A stretch of 64,000 bases of DNA from Patescibacteria group bacterium (lineage in GTDB: Bacteria > Patescibacteriota > JABMPQ01 > JAQVVF01): assembly GCA_041662665.1 (NCBI GenBank), contig JBAZSC010000001.1, positions 65,511 through 129,510 of the forward strand. Direction: 5' to 3'. Below the pieces are notes generated by a model, which ran no database searches, was not told the origin of the DNA, and was given only the letters and a program-made list of their open reading frames with translations. The translations under genes and the position numbers were made by a program. Positions 46,588 to 53,095 of the stretch are shown here, one piece after another; position 1 is the first letter of the stretch; each line of letters begins with the position of its first letter.

Positions 46588-47889
46588 ATGTTCAAAACAA
46601 AAAGACAATCTGTACTAACTTTAGCGTTCTTAATCTTAGCCAGCCTGCTAATTTTCACAGGTTTTGGTTGCAAGAAAAAGCCAACAGCCAATGAAATACA
46701 ACCAATTACCTTGAATTTTTGGTCTGTTTTTGATGACAAAGAAGTCTATGATCCAATGATTACAGCTTACCAAACTTCACATCCAAATATTCATATTGTC
46801 TACAAAAAATTAACTTATGAAGAATACGAAAAAGCAGTTGTCGAAGGTCTGGCATCTGGCCAAGGTCCAGATATTTGGACAATTCACAATACTTGGCTTC
46901 CAAAAGATATTGGCAAATTAGCGCCAATGCCAGATTCTTTAATGACTTCAGCGATGTACAAAGATGCTTTTGTTGAAGTTGCAAGTTCAGATTTTGTTTT
47001 TGATGAAAAAATATATGGCATTCCAATGAGTGTTGATACTTTGGCATTATATTACAACAAAGATTTATTAAATACTGAAGGCATAGTTACAGCTCCAGAA
47101 GATTGGGAGATTTTTAAAGATGCCACAACAAAATTAACAAAAACAGATATTACTGATAATATTGTCCAATCAGGTGCAGCAATTGGAACTTCCAAAAACA
47201 TTAATCGCGCTGTTGATATTTTATATTTATTAATGCTTCAAAATGGCACGCAAATGGTTAATAACCAATTAACCGGAGCCACATTCAATTTGGCAGATGT
47301 TAATGATCCAAAATATTTTCCAGGCACAGCAGCAATGACTTTTTACACTGATTTTGCAAATTCCAAAAAAGAAATTTATTCCTGGAATCTGAATATGCCA
47401 TATTCTATTGATGCCTTTATCGAAGAAAAAACAGCAATGATGTTTAATTATTCTTATCAAAGATCTTATTTAAAAAGCAAAGCTCCAAATTTGAATTATG
47501 GAGTTGCTCCTGTTCCTCAAATTACAGGCACTCAAAAAGCAGTTAATTATGCTAACTATTGGGGTAATGTTGTCTCACAAGCCTCAAAATATCAAGCTGA
47601 ATCTTGGGATTTTGTAAATTTTATTTCAGGTAAAGACAATGTTGATGCTTATTGTAAAAAAACAGATCGACCAGCATCCAGAATTGATGTATTACAAGCT
47701 CAATTAGATGATCCAAATTTAAAAGTTTTCGCCAAGCAAGCTTTGACTGCAAAATCTTGGTATCAAAAAGATCCAGCTCAAACAGAAACATTATTCAATA
47801 ATGCAATTGATGCCATTGTCAGCGAGCAATCAACAGTAGGTGATGAAATCAACACTTTAGCGCAACAAGTAACTAGTTTAATGAGATGA
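46588..47889 (+). CDS. ABC transporter substrate-binding lipoprotein (family 1, sugar-type)
   Basis: Lipobox LIFTGFGC; overall SBP_bac_1-like composition (W/Y-rich; ALYYNKDLL, GIPMSVDT). Confidence 0.65.
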   Translation: MFKTKRQSVLTLAFLILASLLIFTGFGCKKKPTANEIQPITLNFWSVFDDKEVYDPMITAYQTSHPNIHIVYKKLTYEEYEKAVVEGLASGQGPDIWTIHNTWLPKDIGKLAPMPDSLMTSAMYKDAFVEVASSDFVFDEKIYGIPMSVDTLALYYNKDLLNTEGIVTAPEDWEIFKDATTKLTKTDITDNIVQSGAAIGTSKNINRAVDILYLLMLQNGTQMVNNQLTGATFNLADVNDPKYFPGTAAMTFYTDFANSKKEIYSWNLNMPYSIDAFIEEKTAMMFNYSYQRSYLKSKAPNLNYGVAPVPQITGTQKAVNYANYWGNVVSQASKYQAESWDFVNFISGKDNVDAYCKKTDRPASRIDVLQAQLDDPNLKVFAKQALTAKSWYQKDPAQTETLFNNAIDAIVSEQSTVGDEINTLAQQVTSLMR

Positions 47890-49265
47890 AAAAAATAATA
47901 TTTTTAATATCATTATTTGTTATATTTTTTCCAGTTGTTATTTTTGCAAAAGAAGCTGGAGATACTTGTACTAAGGCAGACCAATCCGCAGATGGTTGTC
48001 CTTATAATAAGAGTAAGTACAGTGAAGGACTCGAATGCAATATTGCCAGTGATTATCAAGGCAAGCCCATTAATAAATGCGTAAATCTAAAAAAAGAAAG
48101 TATTCCTGTTGGCGGTTATTGTCTAAAAGATGAACAATGTGAAAAAGAATATTCAGCCTATTCTTATATGTGCAACAAGGCAACCTGGACATGTATCCAA
48201 AAAGCGACTCAAAAAGTTGGGCAACCTTGTTCTGAAGATGGAAATTGTTTTAATTCTTATTGCGATAAAACAGGAAATTTTGGCACCTGTAAAAATGTAG
48301 AAAAAGGTACTTGCTTAAGTGATGAAGATTGTTGGTCACAACAATTAGGTACAGGTTACCATAGCACTAAACCATCTTGCGATACAAAAATCAGAAAGTG
48401 TTATTATCCTAGTTCAAAAAATTATACTGAAGCTTGTATTAGTTCAGGTGAATGTTTAAAAGGTTATGAATGTTTTGTTTTACCTGAAAAAACAGAAGGT
48501 CAGTGTCTCTATCCGAAAAATTCAAGAAAAGCAGAAAACAAACAGAATTGTACTATTACAAGCGAATGTGAAACTGGAGCATATTGCCATGATAATTATT
48601 GCGATTGGCAAGCGGCAAATACTAGTACATGTACACAAGATATTCAATGTTCTAATGGATACTGTGCCGATGCTAATGGAGTAGCAGTTACTGGTGGTGC
48701 TTCTGGCACTTGTGTTACTGGCGTAGCTGAAGGAGGCGCCTGCAGTACAGACCCTAGTTCTACTAAAAAATGTTCATCTGGGTTCATTTGTACCGGAGTG
48801 AATGAACAAACAAAAGAAGGAAAATGTGCGAAAAGTACTGTTGAAACTACAGAATCGCTTGATCAAATAGCAGCACAAGAAAAAGCAAAAAGCAATCTCT
48901 CCTCTCAGATAAACTTGTATTGTGATGTAGAAGCCACACCAGGCATGTTTACAAAAGGTGTCTCCAATACTTGTTTTAATTGTGGCAATTGCGGTTCTCG
49001 CGATATTATGGTAATAGTTACAAATGTTATCAATGGTACATTGCAAATTACAGGATTATTTGCTGCTTTTGCAAGCATTGTTTCTGGTTTTATGTACATT
49101 ATTTCGCGTGGTAATGACGAACAAGTTGGTAAAGCTAAAGGAGCATTAACTGCTTCAATTACTGGCTTAATCATAGTTTTTACTGGTTATATCTTAATTA
49201 ATACAGTCATGACAGTTCTTGGTTATAATTGTGGGCAATGGTTTAATCCGACATTCACATGCTAA
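47886..49265 (+). CDS. secreted Cys-rich protein with C-terminal VirB2/TrbC-like two-helix pilin-type module (paralog 1 of 6)
   Basis: Signal peptide; ~10 disulfide-rich modules (C..C...YC); C-terminus LFAAFASIVSGFMYIISRGNDEQVGKAKGALTASITGLIIVFTGYILINTVM aligns with the other five paralogs; start overlaps the SBP stop (ATGA). Confidence 0.6.
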   Translation: MKKIIFLISLFVIFFPVVIFAKEAGDTCTKADQSADGCPYNKSKYSEGLECNIASDYQGKPINKCVNLKKESIPVGGYCLKDEQCEKEYSAYSYMCNKATWTCIQKATQKVGQPCSEDGNCFNSYCDKTGNFGTCKNVEKGTCLSDEDCWSQQLGTGYHSTKPSCDTKIRKCYYPSSKNYTEACISSGECLKGYECFVLPEKTEGQCLYPKNSRKAENKQNCTITSECETGAYCHDNYCDWQAANTSTCTQDIQCSNGYCADANGVAVTGGASGTCVTGVAEGGACSTDPSSTKKCSSGFICTGVNEQTKEGKCAKSTVETTESLDQIAAQEKAKSNLSSQINLYCDVEATPGMFTKGVSNTCFNCGNCGSRDIMVIVTNVINGTLQITGLFAAFASIVSGFMYIISRGNDEQVGKAKGALTASITGLIIVFTGYILINTVMTVLGYNCGQWFNPTFTC

Positions 49266-49395
49266 AATTTTCAATTCTCAATGATCAATTTACAATAAAT
49301 TTTCATTTTACAATTTTCAATTAGGCTAAATGAAAATTGATCATTGGAAATTGATTGAAAATTGAAAATTGGTAATTGAAAATTAAAAAAATAAA
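49266..49395. repeat. palindromic AT-rich spacer repeat (TTTTCAAT/ATTGAAAA family), copy 1
   Basis: aaaattttcaattctcaatgatcaatttacaat...attgaaaattgaaaattggtaattgaaaattaaaaaaataaaATG; sister copy at 50344..50483. Confidence 0.45.
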
Positions 49396-52192: not shown

Positions 52193-52654
52193 ATGAAGCA
52201 AGTAGCAAGTCTTTCTACTTTCTGCATTCTACTTTCTACTTTCTACAAAAATATGACCATAAAAAAAATCATAAAAATCAGTCTAATTTGTTTAACGTTA
52301 TTTTTCTGTACAAATATAATCTTGCCCGTTCATGCCGCAGACACTGGAGTTCCAGAAATCAATCAGCAAATGGAACAGTTTGGCGAAAAAACTCCAGTTT
52401 CAACTGTCGAGCTACCTGTTTTTGTCGGCAGAATTATCAGATGGGTATTAGCAATTATTGGTGTAATCTTAATTGCAATAATAATTTATGGTGGTTTGAC
52501 TTATGCAACAGCAGCTGGAAGTGAAGAAAAAACAGGCACCGCCAAAAAGATTTTAGTTTATGCTATAATAGGAGTAATCATTATTGCATTAGCATATGTT
52601 CTATCTAGTTTTATTATTGATGCTTTATTTGAATCCAAGACAAGTATTAGATAG
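52193..52654 (+). CDS. short pilin-type protein (paralog 5)
   Basis: IIRWVLAIIGVILIAIIIYGGLTYATAAGSEEKTGTAKKILVYAIIGVIIIALAYVLSSFI; alternative start at 52253. Confidence 0.55.
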   Translation: MKQVASLSTFCILLSTFYKNMTIKKIIKISLICLTLFFCTNIILPVHAADTGVPEINQQMEQFGEKTPVSTVELPVFVGRIIRWVLAIIGVILIAIIIYGGLTYATAAGSEEKTGTAKKILVYAIIGVIIIALAYVLSSFIIDALFESKTSIR

Positions 52655-52702
52655 AGTAATTTTTCATTTATAATTTTTAATTTGTAATTACTTTGAAAGG
52701 GG

Positions 52703-53095
52703 GTGAGAGAATTGACAAAATTTTTTGCAGTATTAGGACTTTGCGCTATTTTATGTTTATGTGTTACACCAGTAGTAATGGCTCAACGAGGAATTGATGA
52801 TTCAACAGGACCACAGAACGCTTTGGAAAACCTGCGCAATGAAACAGGTTATACAACAACAGATTTAATTTCTTTTGTTGGCAGAATCATTAAATGGGTG
52901 TTAGGAATCGTTGGCGTTATCATGATCGCTTTGTTTGTATATGGCGGTGTTACGTATGCAACATCAGCTGGTTCTGAAGAAAAAATTGAGAACGGCAAGA
53001 AAATTATGGTATACACTATTATTGGTGTTGTCATAATTGCCTTGGCTTACGTTCTAACAGACTTTGTTATTGCCGCTTTATTCCCAACAGTCTAA
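52703..53095 (+). CDS. short pilin-type protein (paralog 6)
   Basis: SD GGGGGTGAGAG; IIKWVLGIVGVIMIALFVYGGVTYATSAGSEEKIENGKKIMVYTIIGVVIIALAYVLTDFV. Confidence 0.55.
   Translation: MRELTKFFAVLGLCAILCLCVTPVVMAQRGIDDSTGPQNALENLRNETGYTTTDLISFVGRIIKWVLGIVGVIMIALFVYGGVTYATSAGSEEKIENGKKIMVYTIIGVVIIALAYVLTDFVIAALFPTV

Follow-up and report, generated by a model that had tools for sequence, protein, structure and literature searches.

In the 64-kb stretch of Patescibacteria DNA analysed here (the window, whose numbering is used throughout), positions 47886-53095 hold six plus-strand open reading frames (ORFs) encoding paralogous secreted proteins of the pilin type, designated par1 to par6. The array opens with par1 (47886-49265), which has 459 aa and joins the pilin module to a Cys-rich head of ~320 aa at its N-terminus, and continues with par2 (49396-50343), a 315-aa pilin whose N-terminal head is built of three C-x-C...C-x3-C modules, and par3 (50484-50900), a bare pilin of 138 aa that ends in a T/P/S-rich tail. 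Next is par4 (51421-52176), a 251-aa pilin in which a T/Q-rich linker leads into a C-terminal, beta-rich domain with 10 Cys, and thereafter come two further bare pilins, par5 (52253-52654, 133 aa) and par6 (52703-53095, 130 aa), the latter being the most conserved of the six. An earlier reading of the letters alone (the sequence-only reading) had described these genes as consecutive. Their number and strand are as it stated, but par3 and par4 are separated by a plus-strand gene of the 23S_rRNA_IVP/four-helix-bundle type (50977-51354, 125 aa; PF05635 with 50.8 bits and TIGR02436 with 68.9 bits), referred to below as the IVP gene. The longest-ORF starts of par3 (TTG 50454), par4 (TTG 51391), and par5 (ATG 52193) overlap the arms of intergenic hairpins, and the likely starts are the ATG codons at 50484, 51421, and 52253. 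A database entry for par4 (P0007, 251 aa) is 100% identical, and a 138-aa entry from the same contig (P0030) corresponds to par3 by contig and protein size only.

Alignment of the six proteins reveals that they all share one block, which at ~75 aa is longer than the ~60 aa first claimed for it. Here, a hydrophobic helix is followed by a conserved turn, with the consensus Y-G/S-G-x-x-Y-x-T/I-S/A-x-G-N/S-E/D-E/K-x4-A/G-K-x-x-L/M-x-Y-A/T-I/V-I-G, and by a second hydrophobic helix. Pairwise identity among the paralogs is 21-51%, as calculated over aligned C-terminal or full-length slices with signal peptides and tails included. The topology was read from a hydropathy scan and the alignment. Each paralog starts with a Sec-type leader (basic start, hydrophobic core, and small-x-small end), these leaders terminating in VFA-, VSA-, SFA-, VHA-, VMA-, or IFA-type sites, and then has exactly two more hydrophobic windows of ~19 residues with Kyte-Doolittle means of 2.0-3.0. 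Between these two helices, all six carry a charged loop of ~12 residues (G-N/S-E-E/K...K). The scan thus agrees with the signal peptide and two-helix hairpin that had been anticipated, and from it both termini are predicted to lie outside the cell together with any N- or C-terminal extension, by which the heads of par1 and par2, at the N-terminus, and the C-terminal Cys domain of par4 would all be extracellular. Once the signal peptide is removed, the bare par3, par5, and par6 are ~105 aa long. Moreover, the Cys counts from par1 to par6 (38, 13, 0, 10, 2-3, and 3) bear out the earlier division into two proteins with N-terminal heads, one with a C-terminal Cys domain, and three without either.

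As for family membership, five of the six proteins score above the cut-off (26.6 bits) of the Pfam family T4SS_pilin (PF18895), these being par2 (46.1), par3 (42.0), par4 (35.0), par5 (39.5), and par6 (52.2 bits). At 23.2 bits par1 itself falls short, although its orthologs P0003, P0005, and P0006 pass with 28.3-31.8 bits. The TrbC/VirB2 family (PF04956, cut-off 27.9) is passed by par2 (31.9 bits) and par3 (28.8 bits), and the remaining four are not reported at E<=1, so that the link to VirB2 proper is carried by two of the six. With this qualification, the assignment to a VirB2/TrbC-type pilin family made in the sequence-only reading stands. In addition, par2 (41.5 bits) and par6 (40.5 bits) exceed the 40-bit cut-off of NF045849, the Mbov_0395 pilin-like family, below which are par3 (37.3), par5 (30.0), and par4 (27.3 bits), while par1 has no match. 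The NCBI product name "pilin" is already attached to par1 (as "MAG: pilin"), par3, par4, and par6. Type IV pilus pilins are not among the Pfam families matched by par1-par6, and the proteins also differ from them in build: where those pilins have a class III signal (G|F/M-x-x-x-E) and a single N-terminal helix, par1-par6 have a leader of the Sec type and two helices that are internal or C-terminal. Matches of the pilins to AA_permease_2, DUF898, cytochrome bd, and the like are below cut-off and were dismissed as reflecting hydrophobic composition, and no sequence or structure match was obtained between the pilins and a solved pilin of a type IV secretion system (T4SS). Taken together, par1-par6 are very probably VirB2-superfamily, pilin-like membrane hairpins with extracellular termini.

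The same six-gene set, in the same order and with similar sizes, was found in four other genomes (loci L003/L009, L005, L008, and L010), with proteins of 446/324/141/232/113/144 aa in L003/L009 and 412/328/141/240/135/127 aa in L005. In a bit-score matrix of three genomes (the window, L003, and L005; the ortholog alignments cover all five), the best partners of every protein are its positional counterparts, and ortholog scores are 1.4-6 times that of the best paralog. For instance, par1 gives 481 and 318 bits with its orthologs and at most 81 with any paralog, and par6 gives 203 and 209 bits as against 120 or less. Orthologs of par5 are 69-80% identical and those of par6 80-82% (BLASTP; L003 and L005), with tblastn giving 84% in L008 and 66% in L010 for the latter. 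At the DNA level, identical tracts shared by paralogs of the window reach 18 nt at most. Given this fixed order and one-to-one orthology, the array is older than the divergence of the five genomes, and its members have kept their identity.

The attached domains have diverged differently from the modules that carry them. Ortholog identity is 34-52% in the heads and 58-93% in the modules, and for the same genome pairs the housekeeping genes on the flanks give 64-96%. Even so, 30 of the 38 Cys of par1 and 12 of the 13 of par2 are kept across the five genomes. Fast-diverging heads on a kept Cys scaffold make up the pattern that would be expected of disulfide-braced, surface-exposed domains. In par1, 32 Cys belong to the head, mostly in groups of four, and another six flank the hairpin and are constant in six aligned homologs (ahead of helix 1, C346, C363, C366, and C369; beyond helix 2, C449 and C459). 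Both of these invariant groups, within residues 346-459 (48921-49262), lie on the extracellular side of the predicted topology, and one may speculate that they could staple the ends of the hairpin, in analogy to the head-to-tail cyclisation of VirB2/TrbC. The par2 head has T/P/Q-rich linkers between its modules, whose number differs among orthologs (three versus four). In par4, nine Cys columns are invariant in seven homologs, and the AlphaFold2 model of its C-terminal domain has pLDDT values of 67-88. Two distant par4 homologs (P0012 and P0013) hold an additional C-x-C...C-x3-C mini-module of the par2-head type in the linker (alignment columns ~130-165), and this four-Cys mini-module may come and go among the pilin paralogs in the course of long evolutionary times.

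A search of 1.84 billion cluster representatives with the par1 head returned just three matches at E<=0.001, of which two are orthologs and the third, in an endonuclease protein, was judged spurious, and the head is on this account lineage-restricted. The Pfam family Dickkopf_N (PF04706, cut-off 25 bits) is passed by the par1 ortholog P0002 (30.5 bits) and by an unrelated 218-aa pilin, P0104 (33.3 bits). Four other par1 homologs (P0003-P0006) remain below cut-off at 15-21 bits, and par1 of the window has no match at E<=1. The best Foldseek match of the par1 head, a toxin of the colipase/Dickkopf fold, is non-significant (E=0.04). Overall, the heads look like strings of small, disulfide-rich beta-hairpin modules that are partly Dickkopf_N-like. 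Extracellular disulfide formation is plausible in the candidate phyla radiation (CPR), since these bacteria are enriched in MdbA-like oxidoreductases and VKOR (bioRxiv 10.1101/335083). The Cys-rich outer domains of par1, par2, and par4 probably act as adhesins.

Upstream of the array lie a plus-strand GalU-like NTP_transferase gene (45566-46441; Pfam NTP_transferase, 109 bits) and the plus-strand gene of a sugar-type substrate-binding protein (SBP; 46588-47889; Pfam SBP_bac_1, 91 bits). The latter also has weak matches to NCBIfam carbohydrate-SBP families and a lipobox-like N-terminus (...LLIFTGFGC), by which it is probably a lipoprotein. The window ORFs scanned include neither an ABC permease nor an ATPase, and the SBP is in this sense an orphan. 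Downstream, there follow a DUF2079 polytopic membrane protein (53304-54935, plus strand; PF09852, 197 bits) and two large polytopic membrane proteins on opposite strands (55018-56595, plus, and 56729-58363, minus), homologs of which adjoin arrays in many loci. A glycosyltransferase assignment for these last two was tried and dropped, there being no Pfam, NCBIfam, or PDB match. The stop codon of the SBP gene overlaps the par1 start by 4 nt (ATGA), and a stem-loop downstream of par6 (53152-53184; 14-bp stem with 5 G-C pairs and a T-rich tail) is the sole terminator-like site on the plus strand in 45400-53400 and the probable end of the transcription unit. Because of these two features, the array appears to be co-transcribed with the upstream SBP gene and to end at one terminator after par6.

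To place this arrangement in a wider context, related loci were collected by a scan with a profile of the module over one genome per species, which gave 80 loci (the source genome is not among these representatives). In 28 of the 80, the first pilin gene is preceded by an SBP homolog at a distance of less than 300 nt; GalU stands immediately before the SBP in 21; and in 13 the last pilin gene is followed by DUF2079 at no more than ~900 nt. Since this linkage persists while SBP identity drops to 34%, the GalU-SBP-pilin array-DUF2079 neighbourhood is deeply conserved, and the loci point to Falkow-, Magasanik-, Kerfeld-, Doudna-, Uhr-, and Buchananbacteria. The SBP-linked arrays have 3-12 genes, the first usually long and Cys-rich. 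Hence, the copy-number variation that it had been suggested to look for exists at larger phylogenetic distance, whereas the six genes are unchanged across the five closer genomes. Saccharibacteria-type arrays (L037, L040, and L076) encode proteins of 99-184 aa with 0-3 Cys. Two more loci of that type (L079 and L084), with three pilin genes each, are near a candidate type IV coupling protein, which Pfam confirms for L079 alone; in L084, an ORF of the same length at the equivalent position is a candidate by position and length.

Exactly two pilin-module genes are present in 19 of the 80 loci (e.g. L020 at 7806-18451, L061 at 7700-20221, L052, L043, L029, and L034). In 17 of these pairs one gene encodes ~660-900 aa and the other ~1650-3461 aa, the two exceptions being a pair of small bare pilins and a small Saccharibacteria-type pair. 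The giant proteins start with a leader and a PF18895 module, which scores 33-42 bits in those tested; a linker rich in Gly then leads to a Cys-rich extension, with up to 139 Cys and with Big_5, TIG, and Laminin_G_3 domains. Judging from these domain compositions, the pilin module is widely used to carry adhesin-like ectodomains.

Palindromes are a conspicuous feature of the array. Strong hairpins occupy four of the pilin junctions and the region after par6 (53192-53303), with z values of -3.8 to -7.2 relative to shuffled sequences. They comprise an AT-rich palindrome between par1 and par2 (49266-49384; 59-nt arms, dG -35.4 kcal/mol, z -7.2), another between par2 and par3 (50363-50463; 43-nt arms, z -3.8) at a junction also palindromic in L003 and L005, a plus-strand inverted repeat enclosing the IVP gene (50906-50970 and 51349-51413; 65-nt arms, 88% complementary), and a palindrome between par4 and par5 that overlaps the longest-ORF start of par5 (52181-52239; 29-nt arms, dG -28.9 kcal/mol, z -6.9). 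The statement that every spacer of the array is palindromic therefore applies to these junctions but not to the par5/par6 spacer (52655-52702), which folds no better than its shuffles (z +0.4). Nor are such elements peculiar to the array, as at least ten more occupy other intergenic sites of the window (11570-11638, 22751-22821, 24440-24512, 26182-26270, 36184-36427, 42206-42337, 45406-45520, 46446-46579, 54931-55002, and 56574-56739). The palindromes of the window are long, AT-rich, and imperfect, having 30-60-nt arms composed of short oligonucleotide repeats (AATTTCT, TTCTGCG, TTAACA, AAATCCT, and others) that differ from spacer to spacer. They are a feature of the genome and could act in RNA processing or stability or in termination, or else be elements resembling repetitive extragenic palindromes (REP).

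The IVP gene is missing from the par3/par4 junction in L003, while in L005 a 45%-identical homolog (3099-3564) sits in the loop of an inverted repeat with 58-nt arms at a different intergenic site; L003 has no IVP gene at either site. The gene is an insertion and not a member of the pilin set. Its distribution suggests a small ORF that travels from one intergenic hairpin loop to another, in a way that recalls the intervening sequences of rRNA. PF05635 includes the Avd proteins, and a diversity-generating retroelement was accordingly considered for the Avd-family gene between par3 and par4. This was rejected: no reverse transcriptase family was detected in any scanned window ORF, no template and variable repeats were found, and the direct-repeat families in 47000-54000 are those of the paralogous modules and the spacer repeats alone.

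From this evidence, the locus can be viewed as a chromosomal array of six Sec-exported VirB2/TrbC-superfamily pilin-like proteins (PF18895) in a CPR bacterium with relatives in the Falkow-, Magasanik-, Kerfeld-, and Doudnabacteria groups. In the membrane, each protein would form a helical hairpin, its G-N/S-E-E/K...K loop cytoplasmic and its termini outside. A division of labour may then follow, in which the bare par3, par5, and par6 serve as the bulk subunits of a T4SS-dependent surface fibre, and par1, par2, and par4 as minor adhesive subunits that turn their disulfide-rich domains outward and bind a host or substrate surface. In F-like and T pili, the subunit termini face outward, so that terminal extensions would point away from the fibre. 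For assembly, other parts of the genome would have to encode a VirB4-type T4SS such as Saccharibacteria have. We give this reading about an even chance of being correct. The suggestion of a surface or adhesive repertoire rather than a conjugation pilus, which was made in the sequence-only reading, is in keeping with proposals in the literature (PMC12102498, PMC12857230, PMC10633639) and with the Ig-like, TIG, and lectin fusions.

Several points speak against such a fibre. The families VirB4, VirD4, VirB6, VirB3, and VirB8 are all absent among the scanned ORFs of at least 110 aa in the window, as had been noted before for the VirB4 and VirD4 ATPases, and the combination of VirB4 with VirB3-, VirB6-, or VirB8-like proteins that would define association with a T4SS is accordingly not found in the window. 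Within the 10-kb flanks of the related loci, a crude screen for Walker-A motifs likewise disclosed no VirB4; it yielded FtsH, SMC, UvrB, PilB, RNase J, and, in Saccharibacteria-type loci only, a type IV coupling protein. Moreover, to our knowledge, no T4SS pilin of Patescibacteria has been seen to form a filament, and we know of no characterised VirB2-type subunit with an ectodomain of 300 aa, let alone of the up to 3400 aa reached elsewhere. Ectodomains this large suit a membrane anchor equally well as a pilus subunit.

The PF18895 hairpin might in fact do no more than hold resident coat or adhesin proteins in the cytoplasmic membrane, never being extracted into a T4SS filament. The giant fusions cut both ways here, in that they support the adhesive reading of the heads yet also strengthen this option: with the module at the N-terminus of proteins of 660-3461 aa that bear Ig-like and lectin domains and up to 139 Cys, helical packing is hard to picture. 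That no T4SS genes were detected in the window or in the 10-kb flanks of the 28 SBP-linked arrays, and that the conserved neighbours (GalU, SBP, and DUF2079) are envelope and glycan genes rather than secretion genes, fits an anchor as well. On the other hand, the bare paralogs have nothing to anchor and are nevertheless the most conserved (par6, 80-93%), as would befit a structural subunit, and homology to TrbC/VirB2 is established by curated thresholds. Distance from virB4 is also common, as a pilin gene lies near virB4 in just 1135 of 1948 assemblies (PMC12102498). We regard anchoring alone as rather unlikely, though it is the main rival of the fibre. A glycan apparatus, an attractive addition but improbable in our view, would draw in the neighbouring genes. 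GalU would supply UDP-glucose, DUF2079 and the polytopic neighbours would be GT-C enzymes that O-glycosylate the T/P/S/Q linkers of par2, par3, and par4, the SBP would bind a (host) sugar, and the pilins would form glycoprotein fibrils or part of a sugar-capture device. Such a role is suggested by the gene order GalU-SBP-array-DUF2079/large membrane protein, which persists at 34% SBP identity, by T/P/S/Q-rich linkers or tails in par2, par3, par4, and their orthologs, and by a weak match of DUF2079, far below cut-off, to a "cell surface glycopolymer formation protein" family; we also take DUF2079 to belong to the GT-C clan. However, the proteins at 55018-56595 and 56729-58363 match no glycosyltransferase family, the linkage could equally reflect shared envelope biogenesis or conserved gene order, and glycosylation is not something that can be read from sequence.

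Shuffling among the paralogs through recombination in the palindromic spacers had also been proposed, and would make paralogs and heads a variable repertoire that serves antigenic or host-range variation. While strong hairpins flank most of the array genes, copy number varies from 3 to 12 at larger distances, and the module count of the par2 head changes between orthologs, the strict one-to-one orthology and fixed order in five genomes run counter to such exchange. The ortholog/paralog score matrix and the shortness of the longest shared tract (18 nt) led us to reject gene conversion or shuffling. Furthermore, palindromes are found at many unrelated intergenic sites, several junctions of the L005 array are without them (the spacers there being just 9-12 nt), and no recombinase adjoins the array. 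Shuffling or antigenic variation is thus essentially excluded. As a broader and tentative conjecture, less probable to us than the fibre with minor adhesive subunits, the PF18895 hairpin might be a general mounting module with which Patescibacteria of this lineage display disulfide-rich ectodomains of ~100 to more than 3000 aa on a T4SS-type fibre or on the membrane. The locus would then be one case of a deeply conserved GalU-SBP-pilin-DUF2079 (GT-C-like) operon. Such an operon would build an organelle for host contact that bears adhesins, may be glycosylated, and has its genes uncoupled from those of the T4SS core. If true, this would supply the adhesins missing from Patescibacteria T4SS, for which none were detected (PMC12102498).

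Elsewhere in the window, large proteins with repeated CHB_HEX_C_1/Fn3_assoc domains (455-3970 and 32352-34250; seven repeats in one of 1171 aa) are probably further cell-surface proteins. The 23S rRNA gene (37811-42495 region) is 4373 nt long, being lengthened by insertions that encode two LAGLIDADG endonucleases (39860-40321 and 41209-41685); 5S rRNA (42379-42495) follows downstream, and the window has no 16S rRNA gene. At ~25500-26300, gene orientation switches (minus-strand genes up to 25462 and plus-strand genes from 25810), and GC skew changes sign at its cumulative minimum. This region may be a replication origin or terminus, with no dnaA in the window, and the palindrome at 26182-26270, between rpsO and pnp, has 44-nt arms of TTCTGCG repeats. 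A Fic-domain protein (30637-31590) and a tyrosine recombinase (34285-35313) neighbour two tRNA genes (36267-36338 and 36427-36499), and this region (30637-36499) may be what is left of an integrated element.

Patescibacteria rely on host cells, and in the one species tested genetically the T4SS and its pilin array are essential. Here, a fixed set of head-bearing and bare subunits in one large lineage suggests a shaft plus adhesive minor subunits, and genetic linkage of the set is with a sugar-binding lipoprotein and with envelope/glycan genes, not with secretion ATPases. Should the heads be host-binding adhesins on a VirB2-type fibre, this would be a new use of a T4SS pilin and would offer an approach to the host specificity of CPR bacteria that are uncultured. 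Arrays of this kind as such are already published for Patescibacteria (PMC12102498). No mention of pilins with large extra domains was found in that study or the related literature searched, and no description of the giant pilin-module proteins or of the GalU-SBP-array-DUF2079 neighbourhood turned up there either. What is possibly new is thus the head-bearing pilins, this neighbourhood, and the giant proteins.

In the published survey, 3035 Patescibacteria assemblies were searched with PF18895 and PF04956, and 1948 were found to encode VirB2-like pilins together with VirB4 (PMC12102498). An array was defined there as at least two highly divergent pilin genes, in tandem or split by one non-pilin gene (PMC12102498), and 441 VirB2 arrays of 2-11 genes were reported, with a mean identity of 25% and a maximum of 54% (Quinonero-Coronel et al. 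2025, PMC12102498). The present locus, with six divergent genes and one intervening IVP gene, fits this description. In Southlakia epibionticum (ML1, Saccharibacteria), essential predicted pilins are located inside the T4SS cluster (Wang et al. 2023, PMC10633639), where the array consists of six structurally conserved, sequence-divergent VirB2-like pilins (reviewed in PMC12857230) and is essential for epibiotic growth (PMC10633639, PMC12857230). In common with these arrays, the one here has tandem divergent PF18895/PF04956 pilins with a possible non-pilin interruption, is chromosomal in a monoderm CPR bacterium, and has no relaxase nearby. It also agrees with Southlakia in its six genes, and its identity of 21-51% compares with the published mean of 25% and maximum of 54%. 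In contrast, it stands outside a T4SS cluster, between GalU-SBP and DUF2079, and three of its members bear Cys-rich ectodomains of 100-320 aa.

Canonical T4SS pilins are single-copy, ~70 aa when mature, free of extra domains, and encoded beside virB3/virB4. With Agrobacterium VirB2, RP4 TrbC, and F TraA, the proteins of this array share the signal peptide, the hydrophobic hairpin, the short polar loop, and the extracytoplasmic or outer termini, but they differ in being six paralogs, three with extra domains, and in having no identifiable cyclisation or acetylation sites. A further likeness is to the pilin of the Mycoplasma integrative conjugative element (Mbov_0395/MMCAP2_0565; NF045849), also from a monoderm, whose cut-off par2 and par6 pass. 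This fits the MPF-FATA ancestry reported for Patescibacteria T4SS (PMC12102498), though the mycoplasma pilin is a single small gene in a conjugative element as opposed to six chromosomal paralogs, and no features of such an element were identified in the array region. Lastly, Bartonella Trw (TrwL) and Anaplasma have tandem divergent VirB2 paralogs as well, which are thought to widen host-surface interactions (PMC12102498). These, however, belong to diderm animal pathogens and are small pilins within a T4SS operon, whereas the paralogs described here are ancient and stable, and vary in their domain architecture.

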